Shown one piece after another: positions 1 through 22,339 of a stretch of 22,339 nt of DNA. Source of the DNA: Candidatus Eiseniibacteriota bacterium (GTDB lineage Bacteria; Eisenbacteria; RBG-16-71-46; DASYSL01). Each line of letters opens with the position of its first letter. Positions within the stretch are counted from its first letter, which is position 1. Under the pieces are notes generated by a model. That model did no database searches and was not told the DNA's origin. It saw only the letters and a program-made list of their open reading frames with translations. The position numbers and the translations under genes are program-made. The stretch spans positions 1 to 22,339 of the forward strand of contig JANPEF010000060.1 of NCBI GenBank assembly GCA_031431875.1. Reading direction: 5' to 3'.

Positions 1-3000
1 CGCGGCTGCGCTCACGGTCCGACCTTCGGTCCAGCAGGCATCGTAGAAGGCACGCGACCAGCGAACCGCCTCCTGATCATGGATCGGCCAGAGCCCGAGA
101 ACGACCGTCCCGGCTCCCGCGCGCTCCAGGGAGCGACGCAAGCCGAAGACGCCCTGTCCGGCGACGTAGTCGCCACGACCCGTGTCGCAACCGGTCAGGA
201 TGATCGCGCGGGCGGACGAGAGGTCGAGGGCGGCGAGTTCGTCCGCCGTCAGGATGCCATCGGCGTCCGGAGGCAGCGCGGTCGACCGCGTATTCGCGCC
301 GGCGAGGGCGATGCCGGAGAAGAATAGGGGGTGTAGCTCCGCCTCTGCGGCGGCAGTCGGCCCGAGTTCGCCACGGCCGGTGGCCGCCTTCCCTCTGCAC
401 GCCGGATCGATGTAGAAACCGTGCGTCGCCGCGTGGATCCACTCCGAGCCCTCTGCCGCACGGCGGAATCCGGACTCATCCGCATCCTCACCGGTGAGGT
501 GAACGATCGTGGGCTTGCGCGCCAGGGCCCGGGCGCGGGTGACGACATCGAGGGCCTCCATCCGGGACGCCGGCAGATTCGCGAACTCGATCCGTCCCGG
601 GTCGAGGCAGTCGGACGAAGCGCGCGCCTGCGACTCGAATGCGCTCCGGATTTCGGCGGCGGCTGTCGCTCCGGTGGGGCTCGCGCGCTTGAAGTCGACT
701 CCTCCGACAACGAGGAGCGATCCCGGAGACAAGGCGCCCTGGCGGGGCCTTAGCAGATCGGACTCCGTGGACAGCAACACGATCTCGAGTTCCCGATCGA
801 GAAGTCGCGTCTCCCCTGCACCCGGGAGCGCGTACCACGGGACCTCATGCAGCGCGCCATCGGCGACGAGCAGCACCCGGCTCCCGCCAGCGACTGCCTC
901 CGCAATCGGATCCCAGACGAGCCGCCGCACGTTCGTGCCGAGCCTGCGTTCCTCCTCTGCCGACCCCTTCGCATCGCGCAGGGCTCGGTGCCACGCCGCG
1001 ATCGCGGCCTCGATCGGTTCGGCACTCCCGAGGTCGACGAGCTCGATCGCCCGCTTCGTTCCAGTTTCCGTGGGCGGCGCGAGGAACGCGAGGTAGCGAG
1101 GGGCAGAGGCGCGCCGCCCGAGATCGCTTCCCACGAGCGAGGCATCGTTCCAGCGGACGAACCCGACGAGTGCTTCGTGCGAGGGCACGGACCGCAACAA
1201 GCTGTCCACCGCCGGCTCGGCGCGGGCAAACAGGTCGCGGTAGCGCGATCCCTCGTGGGCGAGCTCGACCTCGAGCTGCTCGGCCTCCCGGACCGCCTCG
1301 GCGATCTGTCGTGACACGGTCGAGTCCGGTTCGCGCGCCGAAGGGTGGTAGAGCAGGTTGGCGATGCGCCTCCGAGCCGCGAAACACGCCTCGGCCCGGG
1401 ATCCGAGGTCGGGATCCCTGACCGCGCGACCCATGCGCTGACGAGATGCGAACTCGTCGAGCACGAGGGCACGCATGCGGACCACCGCATTCCACGCGTC
1501 GATGGAGCGAGCTTCGTCCGGGCGGGCGCGCACGGCGAGCGAAAGAGCAAGGTCCAGCGGATCGGACGATTCGCCGACGTAGGCCAGGGCCTGTCGCTCG
1601 GAGAGATAGCGAAGCGTGGCGATCACGGAATGTCGCTCGATCTCGAGCGACTCGAGGGCGAGCCCGAATGCGGTCGTCGAGTCGGCCTGATCGGCGGCGA
1701 TCTGGGCCAGGTACTTGCGTGTCGAGGCGGCGAGCGGTCCGCCGGTCGCACGCGCGTCGGCGATCGTCCGCGCGACTTCGAGATCGGCCCGGGCGCCGGC
1801 CGTGTCACCCAGCGCGAGCCTCGTCAGCCCGCGATGCAGCCACGACTTCGGACTCGCCTCGGCCACGCCACGCTTCTCCCGGAGCGCGATGGCCTGATCG
1901 AGCAGGCTCAGCGCGGAGTCGAGCTGGCCGTCCATCCGCGCGACGAGGCCCAGGTTCTCGAGCAGCGCCTCTTCTCCATCGGTCGACGGGAATCGACCAA
2001 GTCGGGCTAGGGCGAGCCCCTGCTCGAACTTGACCCGGGCTTCGGCCGGCCGGCCGATGCGACGCAGGCACTCCCCGTAGTTGGAAAGTGCGTTGCGAAG
2101 AACCAGCGTGTCGGGAGATGCGAGTGAGCGCAGGATCCGTTCCGCCTCCCGGTGCTCGCTGAGCGAGCGGTCGTAGTCCCGCAACTCGGAGAGAACGAGA
2201 CCGAGTTCTCCGTGACAGTAAGCGAGCATCCCCGAGTCCGGCTTCGCGGCGCTCCCGACCTCGGAAAGGACGACCTCGTAAGTGCGGGCGGACTGGTGAT
2301 ACTCGCCGGCATGGGCGGCCGCCACGGCGAGAGCCTGGTGCGCGCGAAGCCGATTGGGGTGGTGCATCGGCAGCGCCTGCGAGAAGATCCCATGCGCGGC
2401 CTCGGCATCCTCGAGCGCACCGTCGTAGTCGCCGCGATTCAACCGTACGAGGGCCCGGTTGTTGAGCACGATCGCGATGTCCGGATGATCCGGCGGCAGT
2501 CGCATGCGGCGGATCCGGAGCGCCTCGGAAGCGTCGGCTTCGGCAATCGTCAATCGCCCGGTCTGGCGGGCGTACGTTCCGGCGAGGACCAGTGCCGCAG
2601 CCACCTGCAGGTGATCGGGTCCGAGCGCCGCACGCCGCAGGGCGACAGCGGAATCCGCCAGGGACAGGGCGTCAGGGACTCGCCGCAAGTAGCGGGCCGT
2701 GTACCGTGCGAGGTTGAGTCGTGCGGTGGCGGCCTCGAGACTGGTCGGTCCGTGCAGCCGATCCGCCAGCTCGACGGTGCGGCGGGCCTGGACCGTCGTC
2801 GCGGAGTCCGCCCGGCAACCGCCGCGCCCGATCACCTCGACATAGCTCTGGAGGAGTTCGAGGTGAGCCGGCGTATCGCGGGCGGACGAGGCATCGCTTG
2901 CCGCGAATGCCGGAGCGATCGCCTCGCAGGCAAGGGACAGGTTCCCGGCAGCGATCAGGGAGTCGACCGACGCGAGGAGCGCGGCGTGCGGTGTCTCGAG

Positions 3001-3096
3001 CGACGGGGGCGCTGCTGCTGCCTGCGGAACAGGACAAAGGATCATTGCGGTCAACAGTGCGAGGAGGACGAAGCGGGGGGAGTGGGCACCGGGCAC
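1..3096 (-). CDS. Secreted TPR-CHAT (caspase HetF-associated) protease, CHAT1; 3' end runs off the window
   Basis: Missing from the ORF track, apparently because its stop lies outside the window. Manual translation: GTG at 3096 after GGAGG (3105-3109); signal-peptide-like VPGAHSPRFVLLALLTAMILCPVPQAAAA; TPR-like helices (e.g. VLNNRALVRLNRGDYDGALEDAEAA); CHAT motifs LLVVGGVDF, WIHAATHGFY (His 421-423), DGILTADELAALDL, IILTGCDTG (Cys 187-189), VVLGLWPI. The track lists no competing ORF in this frame. Confidence 0.9.
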   Translation of the reverse strand, partial: MPGAHSPRFVLLALLTAMILCPVPQAAAAPPSLETPHAALLASVDSLIAAGNLSLACEAIAPAFAASDASSARDTPAHLELLQSYVEVIGRGGCRADSATTVQARRTVELADRLHGPTSLEAATARLNLARYTARYLRRVPDALSLADSAVALRRAALGPDHLQVAAALVLAGTYARQTGRLTIAEADASEALRIRRMRLPPDHPDIAIVLNNRALVRLNRGDYDGALEDAEAAHGIFSQALPMHHPNRLRAHQALAVAAAHAGEYHQSARTYEVVLSEVGSAAKPDSGMLAYCHGELGLVLSELRDYDRSLSEHREAERILRSLASPDTLVLRNALSNYGECLRRIGRPAEARVKFEQGLALARLGRFPSTDGEEALLENLGLVARMDGQLDSALSLLDQAIALREKRGVAEASPKSWLHRGLTRLALGDTAGARADLEVARTIADARATGGPLAASTRKYLAQIAADQADSTTAFGLALESLEIERHSVIATLRYLSERQALAYVGESSDPLDLALSLAVRARPDEARSIDAWNAVVRMRALVLDEFASRQRMGRAVRDPDLGSRAEACFAARRRIANLLYHPSAREPDSTVSRQIAEAVREAEQLEVELAHEGSRYRDLFARAEPAVDSLLRSVPSHEALVGFVRWNDASLVGSDLGRRASAPRYLAFLAPPTETGTKRAIELVDLGSAEPIEAAIAAWHRALRDAKGSAEEERRLGTNVRRLVWDPIAEAVAGGSRVLLVADGALHEVPWYALPGAGETRLLDRELEIVLLSTESDLLRPRQGALSPGSLLVVGGVDFKRASPTGATAAAEIRSAFESQARASSDCLDPGRIEFANLPASRMEALDVVTRARALARKPTIVHLTGEDADESGFRRAAEGSEWIHAATHGFYIDPACRGKAATGRGELGPTAAAEAELHPLFFSGIALAGANTRSTALPPDADGILTADELAALDLSSARAIILTGCDTGRGDYVAGQGVFGLRRSLERAGAGTVVLGLWPIHDQEAVRWSRAFYDACWTEGRTVSAAA

Positions 3097-3145
3097 GAGG
3101 ACTACCTCCGGGCACAGGGAAGTCGAGCTCGGGGGGCGCGCCGGA

Positions 3146-3154
3146 AGTCTACCA
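3146..3154 (-). promoter_or_regulatory. Putative extended -10 promoter (TG-G-TAGACT) for CHAT1
   Basis: Minus strand reads TGGTAGACT about 50 nt upstream of the CHAT1 start. Confidence 0.4.
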
Positions 3155-3184
3155 CTCTCCGGCCCGGGACAGCGCGCAGGTCGT

Positions 3185-3576
3185 CTACCGGTCGCTCGCG
3201 GTGCGCCGAAACGCCGAGCGCGCGATGCCGAACAGCCGACAGGCCTGCCGTTCGCTCACTCCGGCGCTTCGTGTTGCCCATCGGACGGCGGCTCGCCGGG
3301 TCGCCACCGTCGCCAGGGTTTTCCCATGGCTTCTCGCAGGAGCTCGAGATCGCGCTCGAGCGCGCGCAGACTTCGCTCCAGCTCTTCGATCCGCGACTCC
3401 GCCTCACGCATGCGCCGGATCGTCGCCGCATCGAGCTTGCCGAACTTTCGCGCCCAGTGCTGGTAGGTGCGCAGTGGCACGCCGTGGCGCGCGAGGACGG
3501 CCGCGATAGGCTCGCGCCCCGCCGCCTCGCGCAGGACGGTCGCAACCAGATCGTCTTCGTGGATGGTCCTGGACAC
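3185..3576 (-). mobile_element. IS3-family remnant: OrfA plus -1 frameshift site plus the first 44 codons of OrfB, with no DDE domain
   Basis: Slippery G_GGA_AAA at 3319-3325. The -1 frame reads TLATVATRRAAVRWATRSAGVSERQACRLFGIARSAFRRTASDR* (TAG 3185-3187), matching the IS3 OrfB N-terminus (S-E-R-x-A-C pattern). No clear terminal inverted repeats were found. Confidence 0.75.
3256..3576 (-). CDS. IS3-family transposase OrfA-like HTH/coiled-coil protein (106 aa)
   Basis: GTG at 3576 after GGGAGG. VLREAAGREPIAAVLARHGVPLRTYQHWARKFG followed by the zipper RMREAESRIEELERSLRALERDLELLREAMGK is typical of IS3 OrfA (HTH_Tnp_1-like). Confidence 0.8.
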   Translation of the reverse strand: MSRTIHEDDLVATVLREAAGREPIAAVLARHGVPLRTYQHWARKFGKLDAATIRRMREAESRIEELERSLRALERDLELLREAMGKPWRRWRPGEPPSDGQHEAPE

Positions 3577-3583
3577 TGCGGCC

Positions 3584-3669
3584 CTCCCCCCGTCATGAGT
3601 CGTTCGCCGTTTCCGGCGCACGTCGACCAATGGTGTGACGCAGCCGGACACGGCGAATCACGGGGGGAG
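3584..3669 (-). promoter_or_regulatory. Long leader stem-loop overlapping the Shine-Dalgarno sequence of the OrfA-like gene
   Basis: Nested inverted repeats: CTCCCCCCGT/ACGGGGGGAG (3584-3593/3660-3669), TTCGCCGT/ACGGCGAA (3603-3610/3650-3657), TCCGGC/GCCGGA (3612-3617/3643-3648), CGTC/GACG. Confidence 0.6.
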
Positions 3670-3737
3670 TAATCTTTTCTCGCCGTGCGGCGGACCGCAA
3701 GGCGGGACTGCATCTTGGTGTACGGGGGAGGACGCGA

Positions 3738-3766
3738 AGTATAGGGTGCTCCCGTCAGAGCCGCAA
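3738..3766 (-). promoter_or_regulatory. Sigma70-type promoter TTGCGG-N17-TATACT
   Basis: -35 at 3761-3766 and -10 at 3738-3743 with a 17-nt spacer; points toward the OrfA-like gene. Confidence 0.55.
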
Positions 3767-3804
3767 CATGCGTTTCGGGCAGCCGGTGGGGTCAGAGTTC
3801 CGTA

Positions 3805-3832
3805 GGGCCCGGCGGCAACGGCCACCGGGCCC
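3805..3832 (-). terminator. GC-rich hairpin downstream of the beta-helix lipoprotein gene
   Basis: GGGCCCGGTGGC-cgtt-GCCGCCGGGCCC on the minus strand; no clear U-tract. Confidence 0.4.
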
Positions 3833-3865
3833 ACGCGAAGCAACGCCTCCCGAGTTGGATGGCTC

Positions 3866-4951
3866 CTAGGTGCACGGTTCCGTATTGATGTCGATCTGGT
3901 TTCCGCGGATGACCGAGTTGTCGTTCCCGCAGTCCTTGATGCGCAGTGTGGACTCGGAGCCCGTGCGCACGGTGTTCAGGAAGCTGGCCGGCGTGAGGAA
4001 GCCGAAGCGATACGAGTCGCCGACGAGGTCGATGTCGTAGGTGCCGTTGTTCCCGGCGGTATTCTCGACCAGCATGTTCTTGTTTGAGCCGTCGATCACG
4101 AGATAGCCCGCATCGAAGTTGTCTCGCGCGTCGTTGCGCTTGCAAATCCAGTTCGTCGCGGAGAACTCGGCGCCGACTGCTTCGCCACCTGGCAGGATCG
4201 TGCTGGCGGCGGGCACCTTGCAGAAGATGATGCCGATGAAGCCGTCGTGGACGCGATTGCCCTGCAGCGTCCCGTCCTTGTCGCAAGCCCAGATGTTGAA
4301 CAGCCCGTTCGACACGTCGTTGTTGGTGATCCGTGCTCTCTCGCCGTTGATCACGACGATGCCGTACGCCTCGGGGATCTGGCCGGTCTGCCACGCCGTG
4401 CTGGTGGCGATCTGATTGCCGTCGATCCACGCCCGCTCGCCCTCGTGAACAAGCACACCGTACTGGTACTCCCGAATCTTGTTGTTGCGCACGACCGTGT
4501 TGGGCGAGTCCTCGATGATGATCGCGGCTCCGCCGATCCCGCCGGCGGGCAGGAGCTCGAGTCCGGCGATCACGACTCCGCCCGCGCCCTTCACGTGCAA
4601 GGCGGTCTCGATGGCGTTGGCGTAATCGACGAGCGGACTGATGGTCGACGTGATCACCGCGCCCGCCTGGCCCTCAATCGTCACCGGTTGGGTGATGAGA
4701 ACCCGCCCCGATTCGGTGTGGTTGCCGGCGGCGACGATCACCTTGCCGCCCGGGCCGGCCGCAGCGAGCGCGGCGGCGAGGCCGTCGGCGGAGCCGGCCG
4801 GAAGCGTCACGACGACCTGCGCGGCGATGGTGGCGCCGCCCGCTCCGGAGAGCTCGGCGAGCGGCTGGGTGGTGAGAGAGTTGTTCTTGCTGCAGCCCGT
4901 GAGCACGATCACGGCCAGGGCGAGCACGGACAGGCGGGTACGAGCGGACAT
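3866..4951 (-). CDS. Right-handed parallel beta-helix lipoprotein (NosD/pectate-lyase-like fold)
   Basis: ATG after GAGGAGG; lipobox VLTG/C; N-terminal LAAALAAAGPGGKVIVAAGNH and ITQPVTIEG; repeated Asn-ladder strands (VVRNNKI, IDGNQI, ITNNDV, LQGNRV, LVENTA). Confidence 0.85.
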   Translation of the reverse strand: MSARTRLSVLALAVIVLTGCSKNNSLTTQPLAELSGAGGATIAAQVVVTLPAGSADGLAAALAAAGPGGKVIVAAGNHTESGRVLITQPVTIEGQAGAVITSTISPLVDYANAIETALHVKGAGGVVIAGLELLPAGGIGGAAIIIEDSPNTVVRNNKIREYQYGVLVHEGERAWIDGNQIATSTAWQTGQIPEAYGIVVINGERARITNNDVSNGLFNIWACDKDGTLQGNRVHDGFIGIIFCKVPAASTILPGGEAVGAEFSATNWICKRNDARDNFDAGYLVIDGSNKNMLVENTAGNNGTYDIDLVGDSYRFGFLTPASFLNTVRTGSESTLRIKDCGNDNSVIRGNQIDINTEPCT

Positions 4952-5180
4952 TGCGTCACCTCCTCGGTCAACGGCAGGGGACCTCCCATGCCTGATCCAT
5001 CCGCCGAGGGTGGTGACTGTGACGCGAGTTCTGATGGCGTGACCGAAGACTGGCCGTCACAGATGCGGCGGGCTCGGGATGTTGCATGGGAGGGCCTCCC
5101 GCCGAGCCACGGCGCCCCTCCCACGGCCGCCACCCCCCGCAGTGCCCCGGCAGGTCCGACTCCATCCACCCGAGGAAGCC

Positions 5181-8100
5181 ATGCGCAGACTTCTCCTCCC
5201 AACGCTCGTGCTCATCGCCTTCGCCTCCGCTCCCGCGGCGGCCCAGAGTCCCGTGGTGCTCTCGGACGAGTTCAACGACGGTGTGTTCGCGCCTTTCTGG
5301 ATCGCCACGGCACTCTCCTGCGGCTCGCCGATCGAGAGCGGGGGTCAGCTCGTGATGAACAAGACGGCTTCGTGCGCAGGAGGACTCCAGGTCGCGTCGG
5401 ACCCGGGGGCGTCGCGCATCCGCGGCGACTTCGACGCCGTGGTCGACTTCGATCTCCCGTCGTTCAACCTGAGCGGGGCGCTCCGGGTGGCGTCCTTCGC
5501 GTTCCGTACCGTGGATGACGTCCACACGGCCGTCATCGAGCGATACAACCGCCAGACCGGGGACGGAGCACCCAACGCCTTCAACTACAAGGGTTGGATC
5601 GACGTCTCGCTCAACAGCAGCCCGGCTGTCGCATGGGCCGCGACGACGCACACGACGGGCAAGTTCAGGGTCGTGCGCACGGGAGGCACTGTCACGATGT
5701 CCTACTGGAGCGGGATGGCCTGGGTGACCCTGAAGACCGGAGCATTCCCGACCGATGACGTGTACCTGCTCCTGACGACCTCGAGCGGGACCTTCGTGAA
5801 CGGAGCGTGGACCGCACGGTGGGACAACCTCTCCGTTACGGCATCGGAGACGGTGCCCGCACAAGCCGTCTACCTTGCCGACGACTTCGAGAACGGCGTG
5901 CTCGACACGCCACTCCACCCATTCACCGGGTGCGGCACGGTCACCGAGTCGGCCGGCAAGCTGCGCCTGGCAAACAACACTCTCTGTGCGGGCGGGGTGT
6001 CTGCGCGCGCGAGCAAGAGCGAGCTTCGCCTCTGCGGTGACTTCGACCTCTCCGTCGATCTGCGCAAGGTCGTGATGGGCACGCCCTCGACAGGGGGCTG
6101 GTTCTACACCGGAATCAGCCTCGGAGACACGACGTTCGTGCTCAACGGCAACCGAGCTGCCATCGAGTGGCACAATCGCTACGCAAACGGCGACTGCATG
6201 TTCACCTCTGCCGTGAAGTCCTGGGTCGGGAATCCAGCCAACTGTGTCTCGAGCGTCCGGGCGACGAACGCGACCGCCGTCCGCTTCCGCGTCCAACGCG
6301 TCGGATCGCGGCTGCGCATGTACCAGAGCCAGGGTGTCGCGTGGGTGCTGGAGCGCGTGTCCAACTTCACGACCCAACCGGTGCTGTTCGAGCTCTTTGC
6401 CGGCTCAGGGACGAGTGGGAATGCGATCGTCATCGACTTCGACAACCTGGAGGCGCGCGGCCACGCCGAGGACGAGGGCGCTCCCGTGCTCGTCATCCTG
6501 CCGGATGGGTCGTATGCCTGCCCGTCGGACGTGCCGCCGTTCTCGCCCGCCGACGCCAGTGCGAGCGGTGCGCCCGAAAACGGAGCGCTCACCATCACCG
6601 CCGAGGAGAGCGTCACGGGCGGTGCGGGGAGCGCGAGCGATCCAAGTTTCCTGCAGCGTACGTTTACCGTCAGGGACCAGTGTGCGCACTCGATCTCCGC
6701 GACCCAGACAATCACGGTCGCCGACGGCGAGGCCCCGGCGCTAACGCCGCCCGCCGCGATCACGATCGCGCCAGGGCCGGGAATCAGCGGCTGTGCGACG
6801 ACGATCGCGCTCGCGGGCCTGGGGAGTCCCGCCGTGTCGGACAACTGCGGATCGCCCACGGTCGTCGTCAGCGGCAGGCCGCCGGACGACCTGTACCCCG
6901 AGGGCGTGACGACACTCACCTGGACCGCGACCGATGCGGTCGGAAACGTCACGACTGCGGAGCAGACGGTGAGCATCGCCTGTCCGCGCGGCAGGGTGGC
7001 TGGGACCGTGCTGCGCGAGTGCAACGGGACGACCGTGCCGGTCGAGGGTCTGGCCGTCGAGCTTCTCCACGCGGGCGACGTGCTCGCGACGACCGCGACG
7101 GCGTCGACCGGCGAGTACGCGTTCGAGGAAGTTCGCCTGGCGACCTACACCGTTCGCGTCGGCGTCGTGCCCGGCTACGCGGTCGACATCGACACCCGGC
7201 TGATCGCTCTTGAGACCGGAGCCGAGAACACCACGCTCGCGCTCGAGCCCTTCACGTACACATGCTTGCTCGCGGATGTCGCGGGCGCGGTGACCGCCAC
7301 CTGTCATGCCGCATCGACACCGGCGGCGGGAGCCACCATCGACCTGTACCGGGAGAACGAGCTGGCCCAGCAGATCCTGGTCGCGACCACGTCGACCGAC
7401 GTCGCGGGCGCCTACCGCTTCGACGACATTGCGCTCGGAACGTACGAGGTCGCCATCGTGGCGCCCCTCGGCTACGTGGCCACGCCGGCCGCGCAGGATG
7501 TCGTCCTCGCGACGCCCGATGGCCTCGTTGCGGCGCTGGGGATCGAGCTCGTCTGCCAGCCGATCGCCGCCCAGCCGCGCAGCATGGCCTACTGGAAGCA
7601 CCAGGTGAACGTCTATCTCACCGGGAAGGGGCATGCGCAGGAGTCACTCGCCGACCTCCTGTCCTACATCGACCTGATCGTCGAGCGCTTCAACGAGAAC
7701 CCGCTCAATCCGATCGCGCTGTATGACGCGGGCGCGGCGGGAACGGAGGACCGTCTGCGCGAGCTGCAGCGACTGCTCACGGTCAACCGCGGCGGCAACA
7801 AGAACCTCCGGGCGCGGCAGCACCTGCTCGGGCTCCTGCTCAACGTCGTCTCGCTCAGGATCTCGCAGGGCGAGGTGATCTCGGCCGACGGCGCCACCGT
7901 CTCGCAGGCGATCACCCACTGTTACACGATGGTCGCCGATGATCTCGGCTCGAACGACCAGACGGCGCAGGCGATCGCCGAGGCGATCAATGCGGGCGAG
8001 CAGGTCGCCGCGGGCCTCATCCCGCTGACGACGGCGAACATCACGTACCGCAATCCGCTCGGCGTGATCGCGCCCGCCGCGGGGTCGCTCGTGTTCGCAT

Positions 8101-8354: not shown

Positions 8355-8406
8355 CGCCACGCGGGGCTCGCTCCCCGCAGGGATGTGGCAATTCAGAATC
8401 GCGGCG

Positions 8407-8453
8407 CGCGGCTCCACCCCGGTGGGGCCGCGTGTTCGCGTGTTTCGTTGTTT
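8407..8453 (+). terminator. Probable intrinsic terminator
   Basis: 11-bp stem CGCGGCTCCAC-cccg-GTGGGGCCGCG (one G-U pair) followed by T-rich TGTTCGCGTGTTTCGTTGTTT. Confidence 0.55.
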
Positions 8454-8480
8454 GCGGAGTTGGCTGCAGCGCGCTATCGT
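8452..8480 (+). promoter_or_regulatory. Sigma70-type promoter TTGCGG-N17-TATCGT for the CHAT2-CHAT3 operon
   Basis: -35 at 8452-8457, -10 at 8475-8480, 17-nt spacer. Confidence 0.5.
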
Positions 8481-8549
8481 TGGCGGTCCCCCCGATGTCC
8501 GAGCCGGCGCGCCGAGACCTCCCGTCCGCGCGCGGCCCATCGTCCGAGA

Positions 8550-11500
8550 GTGCGTCTCGTGATCCTACTCTTCGCCCTGCTGGTCGCGATCGGGACGAGC
8601 ATCGGCACGCCCTCCGGAGCAGGTGCCGGGCCGCTCTTTCAGGACGCCGGCCTGCCGCCCGACTCGCTCCCGCCTGCGATTCGACGCGTGCGAAGGATGG
8701 ACAGCTTCCAGAACATCCTCGAGTACGACCGGGCGGCGACGGCGCTGCATGACTCGATCCGTGCCCGCGGAGACACGCTCAGCTTCGCCTACGCGTGCGC
8801 GCTGGATGCACTGGTCGAAGCGAGCAACGTAATGGCGCGACACCTCGCGCCCGGGGCCCTGCACCTGGCGTATCGGGCGGTGGAACTCAAGCGCGCAACC
8901 ATCAGTCCACGGCATCCGGAAGTCGCTCGCAGCCTGATGGGGCTCTCGCAGGTCGAGGGATGGGGCTTTGACCGTTACGAGCGGGCCGACTCGATCCTGC
9001 GCGAGGCGGAGGCGATCAATCGCGCCTGGTACGGACCGGATCATCGATCCGTCGGGCAGGTGTTGCGTCGTCGCGCCGATCTCCGATTCGCGGTCGACGA
9101 TCAGCTGGGAAGTCGACGATTGGCGGAGGAAGCGCTGTCCATCTTCGAGGGTGAAGCGCACCCCGACACGAGCCTGATCCTGGCCGTGATGGTGCCGCTT
9201 GGCAACATCTGTGCCGCACGGGGTCGAAACGAGAGCGACATTGCGATCAAGGAGCGGGGGCTCGCCATGCAGTCCGCGTTCCGACCGACAAACCGTCGCG
9301 GGCACATGATCCTTCGACAGTATCTGGGTACTGCATTGCTCGACGCCGGTCGTCCTGCGGAGGCGCGCCCGCACCTCGTCGAGGCGGTCGCCTACTTCGA
9401 CTCGCTGTGGGGCTCGAGTCATCTGAACACCCGGATGGGACGTGGTGTTCTCGGCACCGCCCAATTCTTGCTGGGGGACGATCGTGCGGCTCGAGAGTCG
9501 TTCGTGGCGGCGACGACCGTCGCCGGGGTCGAGGACCCTGATCACACCGTGTTCTGGACGCCGCTCATGTGGTTGGGAGTCCTCGATCTGGTCTCCGGGG
9601 ATGCCATGCGCGCTCGCTCGTCGCTGGAACGGGCAGCTCACATCTGCCGCATCCATTATGGCCCGGATCACTCGAACCTGGCGATGACGCTCGAGACCCT
9701 GGTCTATTGCCTGCAGGCACTCGGAGAGACTGACTCCGCCCGCGTCCTGCTTCGCGAGGCGCAGGCGATCCGGCAGGCATCGCGGCTGCGGAATAACTGG
9801 CAGGGCTTCGATCCAGGAACAGCGCTGGCCGAAGGAATCCTTCAGCTCGATCGTGGAGACACGACGCAGGCCGTCCGCACGTTCGAGCGCCTCCTTTCGC
9901 AGGATGTATCGAGCTCGGTTCAGTCCCGGCGTTCGGCAGGAAGTGCGCGGCTCGCCATCGCGAGGATCTTGGCGGCGCGCGGCGCGGGGTCGGATGCGAT
10001 GCTTCAAGCCCTCGACTTCGAGCGGTCCGCGCGGGCGGATGTCCAGGCCGCGGCTGGCGTCCTTCCCGAGCGACAGGCCCTGCAACTCGCCGCCGTTCGT
10101 GAGCGCGGGATCGATCTCGCTCTCGAGATCCAGTCGACGCAGGAGGCGACATCGGACGAGGTTCGCAACCGGTGCTTCGACGAGCTGATTCGATCCCGGG
10201 CGCTGGTGCTCGATGTCATGGCCGATCGTCGCGGGCGACTGTTCCGCGGAATTGCCGGGCCTCGAGGGATGGTTCCCGCCACGTGGGTGGCGGAGGGGAG
10301 CCAACCCGTCGTCAGAGCTCACAGGAGCGTCGGGGATGGCGAAGCGTCGGTCGAAGTTGCACGGATCCTGAGTCTCCATGAGGCGATCGAGATCGCCGAG
10401 GCGAGGGCGCTCGACGGAGTTCAACTTCTCGGGGAGACTCGGAGCGAGTCGCTCGAGGTCGGACTCGACGCCGTGCGCAAGGCGCTTCCTGCAGGGAGCG
10501 CGCTGGTGTCGTTCTGGCGCCGGGAGATCCCGGGGCCCCGGCTGTCGCATTGGTCCCGCCCCGCAGTCCCGATCGGGGGGCGATACGATGCGCTCGTCCT
10601 GTCGCCTGGGTCAGCCGCCCCCGTCATCGTCCCGCTTGGCGTGGCCGAAGACGTCGATCGCCGGGTACTGGCGTGGATTGAGGGCTGCGCCTCGGGCACA
10701 GGCGCCCCGAGTGATGCGCGCTGTGCCGAGGCGGGGGTCGCCCTGCGAGAGACTCTGCTCGATCCCTTGCGACCGCTGCTGGCAGAGGCAGGCCTGGTCT
10801 TCGTCGTCCCGGACGGGGCAATCAGCCGGGTTCACCTCGCAGCGCTCCCACAGCCGAACGGCGACTTCATGATCGAGGCTGGACCCGTGTTCCAGACCCT
10901 GGCCTGCGAGCGGGATCTCGTCGGCGAGCGTGGGCACGAGTCCAATGATCGCCGGCCGCTCCTGGCGATCGGTGGAGTTGACTACGCCGCGGAGCCCGAT
11001 GAGTCGGGAAACATCGATGCATTCGCGTTCGCGCTATCCGAGGAAGACTCGAGGGTCGGGGACGAGCCGGTCTATCGCGGCGGGGCTGCGTGGTGTGGGG
11101 ACGACGCGGCGAGACTCTATGCCCCGCTCCCGGGCACCCGGGCCGAGGTGCTTGACCTCGAGATCATGCAGCACGTGCAACCCGGCATGAGACGCATCCT
11201 GGGTGTTACCGGCAAGCACGCGACCGAGACGCGCCTGAAGTCTCTCGCCTCCCGCGCGGGGGCTCTGCATCTTGCGACCCATGGATTCTACTTCGACCCC
11301 GCGTGCACCGGAGCCAGCGGCGCCAGTGCACGCCTACATGGATGGGCCGCGGCCGCAGAGCTTCCCCTCATCGACAACCCCCTCACCCGCTGCGGCCTCG
11401 CCCTGGCCGGCGCAAACCGTCGCGCCGAGGCCGGCCCCGACGAGGACGACGGCCTCCTCACCGGCGACGAGATCGCCGCCCTGGACCTGAGCGGCGTCGA

Positions 11501-11810
11501 GTTCGTCGTGCTCTCGGCGTGCAACACGGGTCTCGGCGACGTGCTCGACGGCGAAGGTGTGCTCGGCCTGCAGCGCGCGTTCAAGATCGCCGGCGCTGGG
11601 CCTGTGGTCATGAGCCTGTGGCCGGTCGAGGATCGGATCGCGCGCCAGTGGATGCGGCACTTCTACGAGGCACGGCTGACAGAGGGCGTGACGACGGCGG
11701 AGGCGACGCGGCGCGCATCGCTGGCGATGCTGGCGGAGCGGCGGCGACTGGGGTTGTCGACGCGGCCTTCGAGCTGGGCGCCGTTCGTCTCGGTGGGGGT
11801 GGAGCGGTGA
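8550..11810 (+). CDS. Secreted TPR-CHAT protease, CHAT2 (start uncertain; ORF is open from 8385)
   Basis: Signal peptide VRLVILLFALLVAIGTSIGTPSGAGA; TPR_12-like repeats (HPEVARSL, YGPDHRSVG, YGPDHSNLA); CHAT motifs FVVPDG, LHLATHGF (His 11280-11282), VVLSACNTG (Cys 11520-11522), SLWPVED, WAPF. Confidence 0.92.
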   Translation: MRLVILLFALLVAIGTSIGTPSGAGAGPLFQDAGLPPDSLPPAIRRVRRMDSFQNILEYDRAATALHDSIRARGDTLSFAYACALDALVEASNVMARHLAPGALHLAYRAVELKRATISPRHPEVARSLMGLSQVEGWGFDRYERADSILREAEAINRAWYGPDHRSVGQVLRRRADLRFAVDDQLGSRRLAEEALSIFEGEAHPDTSLILAVMVPLGNICAARGRNESDIAIKERGLAMQSAFRPTNRRGHMILRQYLGTALLDAGRPAEARPHLVEAVAYFDSLWGSSHLNTRMGRGVLGTAQFLLGDDRAARESFVAATTVAGVEDPDHTVFWTPLMWLGVLDLVSGDAMRARSSLERAAHICRIHYGPDHSNLAMTLETLVYCLQALGETDSARVLLREAQAIRQASRLRNNWQGFDPGTALAEGILQLDRGDTTQAVRTFERLLSQDVSSSVQSRRSAGSARLAIARILAARGAGSDAMLQALDFERSARADVQAAAGVLPERQALQLAAVRERGIDLALEIQSTQEATSDEVRNRCFDELIRSRALVLDVMADRRGRLFRGIAGPRGMVPATWVAEGSQPVVRAHRSVGDGEASVEVARILSLHEAIEIAEARALDGVQLLGETRSESLEVGLDAVRKALPAGSALVSFWRREIPGPRLSHWSRPAVPIGGRYDALVLSPGSAAPVIVPLGVAEDVDRRVLAWIEGCASGTGAPSDARCAEAGVALRETLLDPLRPLLAEAGLVFVVPDGAISRVHLAALPQPNGDFMIEAGPVFQTLACERDLVGERGHESNDRRPLLAIGGVDYAAEPDESGNIDAFAFALSEEDSRVGDEPVYRGGAAWCGDDAARLYAPLPGTRAEVLDLEIMQHVQPGMRRILGVTGKHATETRLKSLASRAGALHLATHGFYFDPACTGASGASARLHGWAAAAELPLIDNPLTRCGLALAGANRRAEAGPDEDDGLLTGDEIAALDLSGVEFVVLSACNTGLGDVLDGEGVLGLQRAFKIAGAGPVVMSLWPVEDRIARQWMRHFYEARLTEGVTTAEATRRASLAMLAERRRLGLSTRPSSWAPFVSVGVER
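11373..11810 (+). repeat. Direct repeat copy 1 (438 bp, 3' end of CHAT2)
   Basis: Colinear with 14621-15058; encoded peptides differ at 6 of 145 aa. Confidence 0.9.
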
Positions 11811-14800
11811 GATGCCGAACGGCGGGCGTGGTTCGGCTTGCCTCCATCGTCGCTCTCTTCGCCACGATGATGAGCCAGCCCGCGGGCGCTGCACGTCGTC
11901 ATCCCGGGGGTGGGCTGCCGCTCGACCAGCTTCCGCCACAGGTGCGCGCCCTCCGGCAGGAGCCTCCCGGTTCGACGGCGGCCGAGTGGCAGCGCTGGAA
12001 CGTGGCGTTCCACGACTCCCTGGTCGCGGCGGGGGACACCGCGTCGGTTCTCTACGCGTATGCCGTCGAGGGACTCGTCGAGGGGCTCCTGTCCGTGCAG
12101 GAGGTCTCGACCCCGGAAGCCCGGGAACTCGCCTGGCGGGCGCTCGCGCTCAAGCGAAACCACCTTGGGCCCGATCACGTGGAGATCGTGCGCACGCTCA
12201 TGAACGTGGCCCTGGTCGAGTCCTACGGCTTCGAAGCGGACCGCGTCGCCGATTCGCTGCTGGCCATCGCGATCGGGATCCAGCGGCGTGTCGTCGGCGC
12301 CAAACCCGGCCCGCTCATGAGCGTCTTTGCGCAGCGGGCAGGCATGCTCATGGGCATCAACGATGCCTCCGCGCTGGCCCATCTCGACACCGTGATCGCG
12401 CTGGCGAGCGCCGCGAGTCCGCCCGAGTCCTCCCGGATTCTGGGCGCTGTCACGCTCCGAGGCGAAATCCGCGCCAACCAAGGCTACGTTGAAGAAGCCG
12501 TCGATGCCCAGCGTCGGCTCCTCGCCCACGCGATGCGGGTGCGGCCCGACGACGAGCGCGGGATCGCGATTGTCCAGCACAACCTGGGGTCCGCGCTGAT
12601 GTTCGCGGGACATCCGGGGGAGGCTCTTGTCGAGATGTCGAGGGGACGTGACTACATGATTCGGCACCTCGGAGCGACCCACTACGAAGTCCGGACCTCG
12701 GAGACATGGGTCGCGACCACCTACTACCTGCTCGGGGATTTCGTCTCGGCGAGGCGTCACTTCGAGGCGGCGTTGCAGCGGGCACCCGGAGAGAGTCTCG
12801 CGCGAGGCGACCTTCTCGAACCGACCGTGGGTCTTGGAGTCCTCGAGCTCGATGAGGGACATCCAGTCCGGGCACGCGAGCTCATCGAGGAGGGCGTGCA
12901 CGGCCTCGTTGCGCGTTCCGATCGTTCGCAGGCGTACACGGCCATCGCGCTGGAGTCGCTGGCGGCCTGCCTCGTGACATTGAATCGCCCGGACTCGGCG
13001 CTCGTCGTCCTCGAGTCGGCGAAGGAGATCGGTCGCCGCGAGTCCCCCGGGTGTGCCAACTGCACGTCGCCGGCACTCCGCATGGTGGAAGCGACCACTC
13101 TCCTCGCGCTTCGGGACACGACGCGTGCGATCGCGGTTCTCGAGTCAACGGTCGTCGAGGTCGAAGCCCATCCGGGTCGCAGGGTGCACTTCGCGTGGCA
13201 GGCGCGGATGGAACTGGCCCGGCTTGCCGCGGCGCGCGGGGAGCGAGACCGGGCTTTCGATCTCGCTCTGGCCGTCGAAAGCGAAGGAAGGACCGAGGTC
13301 ATCGCGGCGATCGACGAGCTTCCGGATCGATGGGCCCTTCGGCTGGCCGCGCTGCGCACGAGTGGCCTCGGACTTCTCGGGGATCTCTGTGGCTCCTGGC
13401 CGGAAGCTGCCGGCCCCCGTGAGCGCGCGGTGTTCGATGAGGCCGTCCGTTCGCGGGCGCTGCTCCTCGACCTCATGGCCGGCCGGCGCAGCCTGGCGCA
13501 ACAGCGCTCGCAAACCAACATCGCTCCGCTCTGGCACCGATGGGACACGGCGCGACGCCGGCTCCGGGAGTTCGAGGAAGAGCCGGGTTCCACCGCGGCG
13601 GACACCGCAACGGAGCGCACACGCCAGTCGCTCCTGCGCGAGCTCGACGTCGCCGAGGCGGATCTTGCGGCGCGTGCGAATGCGGAGCGAGCGATCGCGA
13701 GTCGTGGGGATACGATCGGCATCGACGCCGTGGCGCGAAGTCTCCGGCCCGGGGATGCACTCATTTCGTATCTGCGCCTTCGCCGTGGCGAGAAGCCACT
13801 GTGGGATGATCCCGGACGGGCTGGGGTTGCGGCGGATTCGTACATCGCGTTCGTGCTGCCGCAGGGGGCTTCCTACCCGCAGGTGTTCCGACTCGGCGAC
13901 GCCGCGGCGATCGACCGCGCGGTCCACGTGTGGCTTGCGGCGTCGGACCCGTCGGCGTTCGCCTCGCAGGACAGTGCGAGCGACGACGCCGGTCATCGGC
14001 TCCGTTCGCGGATCTGGGATCCGCTCCAGTCGGCGCTCGGTGGAGTGCAACGGGTATTCGTCGTGCCCGACGCAAGCCTTGGTCTCGTCGATCCGTCGGG
14101 GCTGCCCGATGGCCGGGGTGGGTATCTCGTGGAGGGCGACCTCCACATCGCGATGCTTGGCTGCGAGCGGGATCTTGTTGGGGTGCGCGGACCACGAAGC
14201 GACGCGAGGCGACCCATCCTCGCCGTGGGCGGCGTGGACTACCGACAGTTGGGTCGCCCTCCGGCGGAGATGGTGAGCGCAGCGTTCGTCGAGGACGTTG
14301 GGGCAGACAGGACGCTGACCTACCGTGGCCCGCGCTCGACCTGCGACCGACTGGGAGACGTCGAGTTCGAGTTCCTGCCCGCGACGCTGTCTGAGGTCTC
14401 CGATCTGGATCGGAGCGCGGCCCGGGCGTCGCCGCGGGTTGCGATTGCGTCGTTGCGCGGAGCCGACGCCTCGGAGCCGAGGATCAAGGCCTTGGCCCCC
14501 AGGGCAGGCGCGCTGCACCTGGCGACGCACGGATTCTTCACTCCACAGGCCTGCGCCGGTGGAGTCTCCGCGGCGACTCGATCCCGTGGCGTTGCCACCT
14601 CGGACGAGCACGCGCTCGTCGACAACCCCCTCACCCGCTGCGGTCTCGCGCTGGCCGGTGCCAACCGTCGTGCGGATGCCGGGCCTGACGAGGATGACGG
14701 GTTGCTGACCGGCGACGAGATCGCCGCGCTGGACCTGAGTGGCGTCGAGTTCGTCGTGCTCTCGGCGTGCAACACCGGCCTCGGCGACGTGCTCGACGGC

Positions 14801-15058
14801 GAAGGTGTGCTTGGCCTGCAGCGCGCGTTCAAGATCGCCGGTGCAGGGCCGGTCGTGATGAGCCTGTGGCCGGTGGAGGATCGGATCGCGCGGCAGTGGA
14901 TGCGGCACTTCTACGAAGCGCGGCTGTCGCCCGGCGCCACGACGGCCGAGGCGACGCGTCGCGCGTCGCTGGCGATGCTGAAGGAGCGGCGGCGGCTGGG
15001 GCTGTCGACGCGGCCGTCGAGCTGGGCGCCGTTCTTGTCGGTGGGGGTGGAGCGCTAG
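11807..15058 (+). CDS. Secreted TPR-CHAT protease, CHAT3
   Basis: GTG overlaps the CHAT2 stop (GTGA); signal-like VVRLASIVALFATMMSQPAGA; TPR repeats (LGPDHVEIVRTL, HNLGSAL, LGATHYEV); LHLATHGF (His 14528-14530), VVLSACNTG (Cys 14768-14770), WAPF. Confidence 0.92.
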   Translation: MRCRTAGVVRLASIVALFATMMSQPAGAARRHPGGGLPLDQLPPQVRALRQEPPGSTAAEWQRWNVAFHDSLVAAGDTASVLYAYAVEGLVEGLLSVQEVSTPEARELAWRALALKRNHLGPDHVEIVRTLMNVALVESYGFEADRVADSLLAIAIGIQRRVVGAKPGPLMSVFAQRAGMLMGINDASALAHLDTVIALASAASPPESSRILGAVTLRGEIRANQGYVEEAVDAQRRLLAHAMRVRPDDERGIAIVQHNLGSALMFAGHPGEALVEMSRGRDYMIRHLGATHYEVRTSETWVATTYYLLGDFVSARRHFEAALQRAPGESLARGDLLEPTVGLGVLELDEGHPVRARELIEEGVHGLVARSDRSQAYTAIALESLAACLVTLNRPDSALVVLESAKEIGRRESPGCANCTSPALRMVEATTLLALRDTTRAIAVLESTVVEVEAHPGRRVHFAWQARMELARLAAARGERDRAFDLALAVESEGRTEVIAAIDELPDRWALRLAALRTSGLGLLGDLCGSWPEAAGPRERAVFDEAVRSRALLLDLMAGRRSLAQQRSQTNIAPLWHRWDTARRRLREFEEEPGSTAADTATERTRQSLLRELDVAEADLAARANAERAIASRGDTIGIDAVARSLRPGDALISYLRLRRGEKPLWDDPGRAGVAADSYIAFVLPQGASYPQVFRLGDAAAIDRAVHVWLAASDPSAFASQDSASDDAGHRLRSRIWDPLQSALGGVQRVFVVPDASLGLVDPSGLPDGRGGYLVEGDLHIAMLGCERDLVGVRGPRSDARRPILAVGGVDYRQLGRPPAEMVSAAFVEDVGADRTLTYRGPRSTCDRLGDVEFEFLPATLSEVSDLDRSAARASPRVAIASLRGADASEPRIKALAPRAGALHLATHGFFTPQACAGGVSAATRSRGVATSDEHALVDNPLTRCGLALAGANRRADAGPDEDDGLLTGDEIAALDLSGVEFVVLSACNTGLGDVLDGEGVLGLQRAFKIAGAGPVVMSLWPVEDRIARQWMRHFYEARLSPGATTAEATRRASLAMLKERRRLGLSTRPSSWAPFLSVGVER
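14621..15058 (+). repeat. Direct repeat copy 2 (438 bp, 3' end of CHAT3)
   Basis: Both copies begin GACAACCCCCTCACCCGCTGCGG and end GTGGGGGTGGAGCG(N) plus stop. Confidence 0.9.
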
Positions 15059-16155
15059 GGTTTTGCGCCGACCTCGAACGGATACTCGATCGGGATCTCC
15101 TGCTCGGCGCCGTCGGCGGCCGGGCCGACGGGCTTGAGACGAAGCACGTACTTCCCCGGCGGGAGCTTCGCCCCGTCGTGGCGGAGGAGCACGCGGGCCG
15201 TCCCATGAAAGTCCTTCCATGGCGCGCGGACCTTCGACAGGATGCGGCGACTTTCCGCCGACAGCAGCTCGAGCGAGACCAGTTCCTCATCGGCGATCTC
15301 GAATGTCGGTTCGATCCGCACCACGAGGATGTCCGACTCTCGGGCCGGGCGGAGTGGGGACTCGCCGTCCTCACCCCCCCGGGTGGCCGAGAGGAGCATG
15401 GGCTCGTCCTTCGACAGCAAGCGCACTTGCCAGGTCTCGGGCCGGTTCGCAGCGGGGACGGCTGGGGCAGGAGCGGGGCTCGATGTCGGAGTGCCCGGAG
15501 ACGGTTCGATCGTCGGCTGCGTCCCGGGTGCCGGCGTCGCACCGGGAGCAGGTCGCTGCTCCGGCCCTTGCGACACCGGCGCAGGCGCTGGTCGTTCACT
15601 CAGCGGGCCGCGGAGCGCGAAGACGATCGCCGCCGCTGTCGCGAGCGCCGAGTAGCCGCCGAGCAGGAGCTGGGAGCGGGATTTGCGCGGGGCTGCCGTC
15701 GTGGCGACCGGCGGACTCACCGGAGGCGCAGGGACAGGCTCCCGCGTCGCGATCCGGAGCAACCTCCCCTCGAGGGCCGGCTCCGGAGCATCAACGTCGT
15801 CCGCCTCCTCGCTCAGCTCCTCCGCCAGGCGCCGAATCCGTGCAAGCCGCTCAATGTCCTCGCCGCAACTCCCGCAGCGCGCGAGGTGTCGCTCGACCGC
15901 CCGGGCGGTCGTGGGTGGCAGCGCATCACGCTCGCGCGGCCAGCGCGCGAGGATGTGGGCGGGGATGTGACCGAGGGACTGCTCCGCTGTCACCGAGTTC
16001 ACCTCCGCATGCAGCTCATCCAGTTGGGAGCGGCAATGGGCGCAGGTCGCCGCATGCCGGTCGACCTGAGCCGCCTCCTCGTCCTCGACGAAGCCGAGGG
16101 AGTGCAGCATCAGGAGGGTCTCGTCCGGGCAGGCGCCGAATCCGGGCCGGTTCAT
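15055..16155 (-). CDS. Membrane anti-sigma factor with two tandem zf-HC2 (ZAS) motifs, one TM helix, a Pro-rich linker and an extracytoplasmic Ig-like domain
   Basis: ATG 16155 after GAAGGGG; C-x24-HAATCAHC and H-x26-HLARCGSC; TM LLLGGYSALATAAAIVFAL; PAPAP linker; LLSATRGG; beta-rich C-terminus (LPPGKYVLRL). Lies directly downstream of an ECF sigma. Confidence 0.85.
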   Translation of the reverse strand: MNRPGFGACPDETLLMLHSLGFVEDEEAAQVDRHAATCAHCRSQLDELHAEVNSVTAEQSLGHIPAHILARWPRERDALPPTTARAVERHLARCGSCGEDIERLARIRRLAEELSEEADDVDAPEPALEGRLLRIATREPVPAPPVSPPVATTAAPRKSRSQLLLGGYSALATAAAIVFALRGPLSERPAPAPVSQGPEQRPAPGATPAPGTQPTIEPSPGTPTSSPAPAPAVPAANRPETWQVRLLSKDEPMLLSATRGGEDGESPLRPARESDILVVRIEPTFEIADEELVSLELLSAESRRILSKVRAPWKDFHGTARVLLRHDGAKLPPGKYVLRLKPVGPAADGAEQEIPIEYPFEVGAKP

Positions 16156-16168
16156 GGCCTGATCCCCT

Positions 16169-16729
16169 TCATGCACCCTCCCGGCCCGACAGCCATTCGT
16201 CCATCAGGACGTCGATCCCCAGTGCGTCTTTGTGACTCCGAATCGCCTTGCAGCAGCGCGAAAATCGCTGCCGGACGGCCTGCGAGGTCGAACCGAGAGC
16301 AGCGGCGATCTCCTCGTACGTCCGGCCGGCCAGGCGCAGCTCGAAGATGGGCAAGTCATCGGAGCGCTCTTCGCGAATCCACTCGAAGATGCAGAGCACC
16401 ATCACCTCGAACTTCTCCGCTGGGATCCCCGCCGGAGGAGTCGGCAGATCGATGGGCTGCCCGTCCGGGCCGCCGCTGTCGAGGGACGTGTGCGACTTCT
16501 TCTGCAGCCGCCGGTACTCGTTGGCGGCCGCCCAGCGGGCAATCCGGTAGACGAGCGCCATCGGATTCGGCGCCTCCCGGTGCCGACGATAGCGCAGGTA
16601 GCGCAGGATCGCCTCCTGCGCAACGTCATCGGCGGTCTCGGGCTGGAACCGCGGATACAGTCGACGCACATACCGCACGATCCGGCCCCAGGCCATCGCG
16701 CAGAACAGGTCGTCGGGATCCAGCGGCAT
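16169..16729 (-). CDS. ECF (sigma-70 family) RNA polymerase sigma factor
   Basis: ATG 16729 after GGAGGAG; region 2 ADDVAQEAILRY...LVYRIARWAAANEYRR; region 4 FELRLAGRTYEEIAAALGSTSQAVRQRFSRC. Confidence 0.9.
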   Translation of the reverse strand: MPLDPDDLFCAMAWGRIVRYVRRLYPRFQPETADDVAQEAILRYLRYRRHREAPNPMALVYRIARWAAANEYRRLQKKSHTSLDSGGPDGQPIDLPTPPAGIPAEKFEVMVLCIFEWIREERSDDLPIFELRLAGRTYEEIAAALGSTSQAVRQRFSRCCKAIRSHKDALGIDVLMDEWLSGREGA

Positions 16730-16828
16730 CGGCGTCTCCTCCCGCGCCGGCGACGGGAATCGCCGGAAGGGGGCCAGGTGAAGGCGCAACGTGGAAGCGG
16801 GGGGATGGCGAATCGGGGTGCGAGAAGG

Positions 16829-16891
16829 ACGGTACCGCCGCGGCGAGCAGTCGCGCAAGCTTCGATGGTTTCTTTTTCCATCATTGTTTTT
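16829..16891 (-). promoter_or_regulatory. Sigma70-type promoter TTGCGC-N18-TACCGT with an upstream A-tract (UP-like) element
   Basis: -35 at 16853-16858, -10 at 16829-16834; AAAAACAATGATGGAAAAAGAAACC lies just upstream and stands out in this GC-rich DNA. Confidence 0.45.
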
Positions 16892-17845: not shown

Positions 17846-17898
17846 CGTGTTCCTCCACGCATCCGGCTCCGCAGCCGGACGGCTGGTCGGGCTGCGGG

Positions 17899-22208: not shown

Positions 22209-22241
22209 TATGGCATGACCTCTTGTCAAGCTGGTCCACAC

Positions 22242-22275: not shown

Positions 22276-22339
22276 GGGGAGATGAGCTTCTGGAAGGACG
22301 GACGCGGAAGTCGCCGACGGCGTGTCACTCTGATATCCG

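Follow-up and report, generated by a model that had tools for sequence, protein, structure and literature searches.

Genes of the locus

The window analysed here, by which we mean the whole stretch of DNA, is a complete contig of 22,339 nucleotides (G000:C60; GenBank assembly GCA_031431875.1, contig JANPEF010000060.1) from the 3.75-Mb genome of a Candidatus Eiseniibacteriota bacterium, 98% complete in 166 contigs. It carries three genes for TPR-CHAT proteins, predicted to be exported caspase-fold proteases, together with genes for a predicted membrane anti-sigma factor and a divergent extracytoplasmic function (ECF) sigma factor. Scanning of 15 window proteins with Pfam recovered three proteins with both TPR and CHAT domains (CHAT E-values of 3e-37, 6e-53 and 7e-57), as well as a zf-HC2 protein and a weakly scoring protein with sigma-70 regions 2 and 4. 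The three CHAT domains score above the curated cut-off of PF12770 and, by alignment, each has an intact His/Cys dyad, the two features by which a CHAT domain was recognized; the closest named relatives of these proteins are mostly from Candidatus Eisenbacteria.

CHAT1 (3096..<1, minus strand), called by Pfam, alignment and a signal-peptide heuristic, is cut by the contig end and its C-terminus is missing; at least 1,032 residues remain, including the dyad H892/C970. CHAT2 (8559-11810, plus strand, with a possible start at 8550) has 1,083 residues and the dyad H908/C988, and is followed on the same strand by CHAT3 (11807/11828-15058), of 1,083 or 1,076 residues depending on the start, with the dyad H901/C981 when numbered from 11828. 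The upstream GTG start of CHAT3 overlaps the stop codon of CHAT2, and the catalytic domain of CHAT3 was modelled with a mean predicted local distance difference test (pLDDT) score of 87.5.

The stop codon of CHAT3 in turn overlaps, at 15055-15058, that of the predicted anti-sigma factor (15055-16155, minus strand). This protein has two zinc-binding anti-sigma (ZAS) motifs of the form HxxxCxxC, at residues 34-41 and 90-97, and a single predicted transmembrane helix of 19 residues (163-181; 15613-15669, minus strand), with a mean hydropathy of 1.98 against 0.88 for the best other segment; in the structure model the helix spans residues 162-182, and is followed by a long, disordered, Pro-rich linker and a predicted beta-sandwich ectodomain resembling immunoglobulin (Ig) or FN3 folds. 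Foldseek searches with the ectodomain gave weak FN3/Ig-like rows at best, none at an E-value of 0.001 or better. Residues 252-274 form a low-confidence loop, within which R259 (15379-15381, minus strand), in the sequence Thr-Arg-Gly-Gly, is a candidate cleavage or docking site. The divergent ECF sigma factor (16169-16729, minus strand; 186 residues) overlaps the anti-sigma leader, has regions 2 and 4 only, with scores close to the cut-offs, and groups with the sigma factors of loci that share its anti-sigma family. Using phmmer, two homologues were found for the anti-sigma factor and none for the sigma factor, and an Atlas search returned nothing but unnamed clusters.

The sequence-only reading of this DNA had described three TPR-CHAT genes, each with a signal-peptide-like start and a His/Cys dyad, and, next to CHAT2 and CHAT3, an ECF sigma factor with an anti-sigma factor bearing zinc motifs, one membrane helix and an ectodomain; Pfam, the alignments and the hydrophobicity heuristic bear out this description.

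Linkage of sigma and CHAT genes in relatives

Of the order's 41 genomes, 38 have CHAT genes. The order-level search gave 183 matches outside the genome studied, of which 143 were listed and 120 loci analysed, those omitted being mostly short frames. With sigma and CHAT genes called by local profiles and a linkage distance of 3.5 kb, a sigma gene lies near the CHAT gene in 70 of the 120; the figure for loci drawn from many phyla is 33 of 79, and that for genes of at least 600 residues in the genome studied is 13 of 419. The linkage therefore exceeds chance, at about 19 times background, in counts that include related loci and are uncorrected for kinship, and the neighbourhood survey that the earlier reading had proposed thus shows a conserved association. 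The gene following the sigma gene falls mainly into five partner groups, as defined by BLAST clusters and assignment by eye: proteins with a short beta ectodomain, membrane Ser/Thr kinases ending in DUF4384, membrane-less zinc proteins, proteins with a TPR ectodomain, and the double-zinc proteins to which the window's anti-sigma factor belongs. In quick IQ-TREE and FastTree runs, the sigma factors largely form clades matching the partner group. Two cyanobacterial CHAT loci (L077 and L079) have a sigma-like gene followed by one for a DUF1822 protein.

The reverse search, from profiles of the ectodomains against 206 genomes of the phylum, gave 40 new loci, few of them outside the order. For the short-beta sister family, 16 of 18 hits had a CHAT gene in their locus, as did 8/8 of those with at least 6 kb on both sides. 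For the window's own anti-sigma family the figures were 8 of 21 and, with full flanks, 4 of 9; one further locus gave no local hit. Partnership with CHAT is thus strong for this family but not always local: eight of ten genomes picked from the reverse-search hits have close CHATs somewhere in the genome, and one (G015) has none. These results also supply a first set of observations weighing against the proteolytic switch that we propose below, because 13 of the 21 new hits, including five of the nine with full flanks, had no CHAT gene in the stretch examined (four of the 21 also lacked a sigma gene and may be other proteins), and because a 98% complete genome (G025) has the sigma/anti-sigma pair with distant CHAT matches only (best E-value 3e-11). 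A subgroup of the family with no adjacent CHAT (L360, L361, L362, L366 and L368) has a common Arg-Ser-Leu-Ser-Gly-Pro motif and either Lys or Arg at the candidate site.

Predicted export and the location of the partner

Signal peptides were scored by a hydrophobicity heuristic rather than by SignalP, as an uncharged hydrophobic 12-mer near any plausible start, with a cut-off of 2.0; CHAT1, CHAT2 and CHAT3 score 2.9, 3.6 and 2.2, respectively. When frames shorter than 700 residues or open at the 5' end were excluded, signal-like starts were found in 61 of 66 CHATs encoded beside membrane partners (25/25, 16/20, 1/1, 9/9 and 10/11 by group) against 1 of the 13 with membrane-less partners, a comparison that is weakened by the free choice of start codon in the heuristic and by the membrane-less set being essentially one clade, which counts as about one event. 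Export appears to be the norm in the lineage, because 39 of 50 other CHATs also score as signal-like. A pair of loop cysteines (C839 and C909 in CHAT3) is either complete, in 48 of 72 aligned CHATs, or wholly absent, in the other 24; this strict co-occurrence fits both a disulfide and export, and from the alignment it is likely that the loop of CHAT3 is tethered by a C839-C909 disulfide.

A cytoplasmic version of the module is seen in ten loci (L156, L167, L171, L175, L183, L185-L188 and L190), where the sigma gene is accompanied by a membrane-less zinc partner with a conserved Arg, a CHAT without a signal and then a subtilase (Pfam S8 in five of six scanned). The genome studied probably has such a copy itself, split over two contig ends (G000:C83 1-2254 with G000:C49 55974-59118).

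A conserved arginine in the partner ectodomains

Of 68 partner ectodomains, 48 contain the motif [LVTM]RG, compared with 20.9 expected from shuffled sequences; among 45 control proteins encoded downstream of other sigma factors, one of which turned out to be of a CHAT-type family, it occurs in 14, compared with 10.9 expected. In three ectodomain families with no BLAST link between them the Arg stands in a single column, in 26/26, 18/21 and 10/11 rows. The Arg column of the window's anti-sigma family, that of R259, is filled in 10 of 11 rows and that of the soluble partner type in 13/13, and the TPR-type family has the motif in 7 of 10 rows; automatic selection of the best Arg column missed the motif column in these last three groups, for which it was read separately. 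Further hits kept the Arg in 18/18 and 13/17 cases, the latter being those of the window's family, in which the R259 position is Arg in 7/7 of the further hits beside a CHAT gene and Lys replaces it in three CHAT-less members. R259 itself lies in a predicted flexible loop with pLDDT below 50. That the motif is kept in flexible segments and across ectodomains whose folds are unrelated is as expected of a cut site, and on these comparisons the Arg-Gly/Ser motif at R259 is likely to be one. It should be said that the motif was chosen after the sequences had been seen, and that the profiles used to find the further hits already contain the Arg, both of which tell against this assignment.

The proteases carry related sequences. 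Of 21 CHATs of kinase-type modules, 17 have RG[IVMFL]G in the loop that follows the catalytic His. In the 18 kinase-type pairs in which both partners have the motif, the CHAT loop shares 78 identities with the motif of its own partner, compared with a null mean of 54.8 that was matched in 0 of 20,000 permutations (kinship uncorrected); two kinase-type loci lack the motif in either partner. Such modules, consisting of a sigma gene, a membrane Ser/Thr kinase with a DUF4384 ectodomain and a signal-like TPR-CHAT, were seen at L007, L008, L016, L059, L128-L133, L139, L148-L151, L158, L165, L170 and L204, the protease loop copying the Arg-Gly-x-Gly of the kinase pair by pair. A further point on the negative side is that this mimicry belongs to the kinase-type modules, RG[IVMFL]G being found in 0 of 9 CHATs of the window's type. 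CHAT2 and CHAT3 have instead a Tyr-Arg-Gly in the loop preceding the catalytic His (R833 in CHAT3; 14324-14326, plus strand), and the protease's own loop Arg falls within two columns in 56 of 72 rows.

We also considered whether the Arg loop might serve instead as bait or for docking; the ectodomain would then hold or inhibit the CHAT, or the CHATs would be outputs of the sigma factor that process secreted proteins, and the sigma factor would be released by another route. Gingipain has self-inhibiting Arg loops (PMC4357240), the loop mimicry shows recognition rather than cutting, and some sigma/anti-sigma pairs have no nearby CHAT. We nevertheless regard this alternative as improbable, given the retention of the motif across unrelated folds and in flexible segments and, for CHATs as outputs, the lack of a shared promoter motif in five upstream regions, a comparison of low power.

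The specificity of the protease bears on the same question. The dyads are invariant in the CHAT alignment, as are a Glu and an Asp near the dyad in 72/72 rows. In MALT1, two regions set Arg specificity (PMC4357240), and the invariant CHAT residues would fall in these regions, around the pocket, as placed from the alignment. In separase, the P1 Arg is held by D2151 (PMC9729208); the equivalent of this Asp is absent from the CHATs, its position aligning to Arg in 54 of 72 rows by our own count, which argues against cleavage after Arg and is as the bait alternative would have it. Nor do the characterized bacterial CHATs cut after Arg, Leu or Met being used instead, and one of them needs a Gly after the cut site, in an exposed loop (10.1101/2021.06.07.447441). 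A complex prediction for CHAT3 (residues 330-1076) with the anti-sigma ectodomain scored 0.00, and was used neither for nor against binding.

A different exported Arg-specific protease, such as a gingipain-like C25 enzyme, might make the first cut, the CHATs being co-regulated neighbours or non-catalytic sensors. Three C25 genes are present in the genome and could act at Arg, which counts against our proposal; the DdvA island of Myxococcus (see below) also has one, and Arg or Lys is retained at the site in the subgroup without CHAT. The C25 genes are, however, unlinked, on other contigs, the CHAT dyads are invariant and CHAT location follows partner location, and we give this possibility little weight. 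A C14 caspase as the cutter was rejected, as none was found in the genome.

One or three inputs

The sequence-only reading had several inputs feeding one transcriptional output, a claim that is only partly upheld. At both of its ends, CHAT1 has as its best homologue a CHAT of the same-genus genome G004 (locus L182), with 40-42% identity and an SH-aLRT of 99, and that CHAT adjoins a sigma gene and an anti-sigma gene of the window's family, the same small helix-turn-helix (HTH) gene and msrA, in a different order. CHAT2 and CHAT3 are mutual best matches, with 84-95% amino-acid identity after residue 922 and 23-40% before it, a difference that suggests gene conversion of their catalytic ends; the 3' tract of CHAT2 (11367-11806, plus strand), which contains the catalytic Cys, and its counterpart in CHAT3 (14615-15054, plus strand) have 89.5% DNA identity over 440 bp. 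That all three CHATs serve this one anti-sigma factor, CHAT1 by ancestry and CHAT2 and CHAT3 by adjacency and their shared catalytic end, falls in our view just short of an even chance. Against several inputs, there is one CHAT in 98 of 106 sigma-linked loci and two or more in the other eight, and no shared promoter was found among the five upstream regions, in a comparison of low power.

The alternative, to which we assign a somewhat smaller but still substantial chance, is that a single CHAT serves the anti-sigma factor, and that the others, which would have accumulated at a variable site by the HTH gene and msrA, have different partners or no partner at all; this alternative is compatible with cleavage. 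Besides the predominance of one CHAT per sigma factor, it would account for the absence of the block 3734-17153 from the same-genus genome G002, for the position of CHAT1, 12 kb from the anti-sigma gene and in a different sub-clade from CHAT2 and CHAT3, and for the atypical GC content at third codon positions of the CHAT and anti-sigma genes (0.79-0.82, compared with a median of 0.91). It accords less well with the ancestry of CHAT1 beside the same anti-sigma family in G004, or with the homogenization of the catalytic ends of CHAT2 and CHAT3 though their TPRs differ. In addition, the genome studied has, on contig C61 (50364-51661), a sigma/anti-sigma pair within 7 kb of which no CHAT was called and, on contigs C6 and C119, two CHATs without a sigma gene nearby, all of which group near one relative (L173), and this too speaks against the single-input alternative. 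Both of the C6 and C119 CHATs have a hydrophobic tail at their end, and the C61 pair may be their distant partner. Further modules of other types lie in the same genome at G000:C102 3800-7592 and G000:C149 14957-19186.

The cluster is patchy within the genus, with fragments at the same site in the genome G003, as might be expected of an accretion that arose by chance or is decaying, and in which protease and sigma factor are not functionally linked. The intact frames and dyads, the degree of linkage and the conserved motif make such an accretion very unlikely. The small HTH_Tnp_1-like gene that borders the variable block (3256-3651, minus strand) lies near msrA in G004 and G005; that it might be a fresh insertion scar was rejected, as it is kept in four same-genus genomes.

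Comparison with known systems

The earlier reading took type III-E CRISPR as the nearest precedent, and this was not borne out: the closest system is DdvA/DdvS of Myxococcus xanthus, and the best solved match to the window's CHAT domain is DdvA itself (E-value 7.8e-15; PDB 8rot), with a weak match between the anti-sigma factor and the DdvA N-domain (E-value 0.008). In the DdvA paper (PMC11506125), DdvA is a TPR-CHAT protein fused to an anti-sigma factor and proposed as its own site-1 protease, truncated DdvA is degraded by RseP, and fused DdvA-like proteins are reported from Myxococcota and one Comamonas only. Both systems have an adjacent ECF sigma gene, directly upstream in the window, a single membrane helix, a zinc-binding anti-sigma domain at the N-terminus and a TPR-CHAT part with its dyad, periplasmic in DdvA, and RseP as second protease in DdvA/DdvS has its likeness here in an RseP-like M50 protease gene elsewhere in the genome (E-value 1.5e-59). 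They differ in that the TPR-CHAT proteins of the window are encoded by three separate genes, have signal-like starts and are not fused to the anti-sigma factor, which bears a pair of zinc motifs and whose ectodomain is a small beta-sandwich with the Arg loop; nor does the window contain CBASS (cyclic oligonucleotide-based anti-phage signalling) or CRISPR genes, such as make up the island that DdvA/DdvS controls. It is the split, exported form that differs, the concept of a caspase-type site-1 protease being already known.

In type III-E CASP (Csx29, Csx30 and CASP-sigma; PMC10028731, 10.1101/2022.08.17.504292), a free TPR-CHAT protease likewise cuts a sigma inhibitor in a variable C-terminal domain, and one group of Csx30 proteins has DUF4384 at its end, like the kinase partners of the window's relatives. 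Csx29, however, is a cytoplasmic enzyme that is triggered by RNA-bound Cas7-11 and whose cut falls after Met or Leu, and the window's CHATs have signal-like starts by the heuristic. Csx30 was not among the PDB matches to the anti-sigma profile at E-values up to 10, a search of PDB matches rather than a direct comparison of profiles. The sequence-only reading had the system free of Cas genes and arrays in the window, which is correct, and no Cas1, RAMP or CRISPR array was detected in the genome either (98% complete, in 166 contigs); a CRISPR link was rejected on this basis. There was no PADLOC match among seven window proteins; CBASS was not searched for genome-wide.

The ECF54 group of Actinobacteria, as described in the part of the PMC7826278 supplement available, combines an ECF sigma gene with genes for a TPR-CHAT protein and a subtilase and with a conserved +1 gene of carboxypeptidase-regulatory type, and a regulatory role was suggested, with no anti-sigma factor, mechanism, export or Arg site in that description; CHAT does not feature in the main text of that paper. 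The membrane-less modules of relatives resemble ECF54 by gene neighbourhood; in the window, by contrast, the +1 gene encodes the membrane anti-sigma factor, and there is no subtilase among the 15 proteins scanned. DegS-RseA-RseP proteolysis, as outlined in PMC10028731 and PMC11506125, shares the outside first cut, the intramembrane second cut and sigma release; here the first cut would instead come from a cysteine protease of caspase fold that has a TPR sensor and whose gene lies with that of its target. The SAVED-CHAT/PCaspase locus of Haliangium (10.1101/2023.06.23.546230) encodes a CHAT, a sigma factor and a Ser/Thr kinase together, as in the kinase-type modules, but is nucleotide-activated and CRISPR- or CBASS-linked, its CHAT cutting a second caspase. 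In the literature covered, which takes in few subscription journals, we came across no account of a membrane anti-sigma factor being cut by exported TPR-CHATs encoded apart from it, and the arrangement, a conserved split variant of a known design, is apparently undescribed so far.

Proposed mechanism

The genes, dyads, zinc motifs, hydrophobic helix, linkage, conserved Arg and RseP-like gene are observed, and around them we propose a split, trans-acting switch of the DdvA/DdvS type, which, from the comparative evidence, we consider rather better than an even proposition. The predicted exported TPR-CHAT proteases would sense an outside signal through the TPR array, and the activated CHAT would cut the predicted membrane anti-sigma factor at the R259 loop, allowing an RseP-type protease to make the second cut and so free the bound ECF sigma factor. 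The CHAT's own Arg-Gly loop may be a pseudo-substrate or a self-cleavage site that holds the protease off until the signal arrives. The earlier proposal of an exported site-1 protease is thus supported by the linkage, the compartment match, the conserved Arg loop and the RseP-like gene, all of them comparative, while its novelty is lost to DdvA/DdvS. Two further points weigh on the other side: CHAT2 and CHAT3 are on the strand opposite the sigma operon, and self-cleavage of DdvA was not observed in the study that describes it (PMC11506125).

Neighbouring genes and possible outputs

A predicted secreted protein of 1,057 residues (5181-8354, plus strand), with SdrD_B/HYR repeats and a weak sorting-tail match, is encoded upstream of CHAT2 on the same strand and within the block missing from G002; divergent from it is the gene for a predicted beta-helix lipoprotein (3866-4951, minus strand), and each may be an output of the system or a passenger. 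Among 67 flanking genes chosen from 140, for which there was no background set, 21 encode repeat, propeller or FlgD-tailed proteins, and no Cas or CBASS family was found among the 67 at an E-value of 1e-7. Nearby large secreted surface proteins are candidate outputs.

Beyond the block, the region 17150-19324 (minus strand) encodes a separate ECF sigma factor, a small membrane partner and two Spy/CpxP-like proteins; this module is kept in G001 and G002, and its sigma factor lies outside the CHAT-linked sigma clades. A small predicted secreted protein (21573-22208, plus strand) has a WGxxKxxYR-like tail which, by eye, ends several other predicted secreted proteins of the genome and may be a sorting signal. 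About 160 bases at the contig end (about 22175-22339) recur on contigs C18, C59 and C61 at 96-99% identity.

Significance

Few of the common TPR-CHAT proteases have a known target, and in the DdvA paper (PMC11506125) the proposed first cut could not be shown, the trigger being unknown. The split form offers a candidate residue (R259), a separate enzyme and substrate, and natural controls in the soluble and membrane types and in the loci where both partners have lost the motif, so that caspase-type site-1 proteolysis becomes directly testable. More tentatively, and we think it on balance unlikely in this full form, there may be a widespread CRISPR-independent class of exported caspase-fold proteases that read outside signals through swappable TPR sensors, are held off by an internal copy of the target's Arg-Gly loop and cut membrane anti-sigma factors or receptor Ser/Thr kinases to turn on dedicated ECF sigma factors, with the present locus a three-input gate whose ends are kept alike by gene conversion. 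The proteolytic switch proposed above, if true, would add a class of site-1 proteases, would extend the route to receptor kinases and would provide modular sensor-protease parts.

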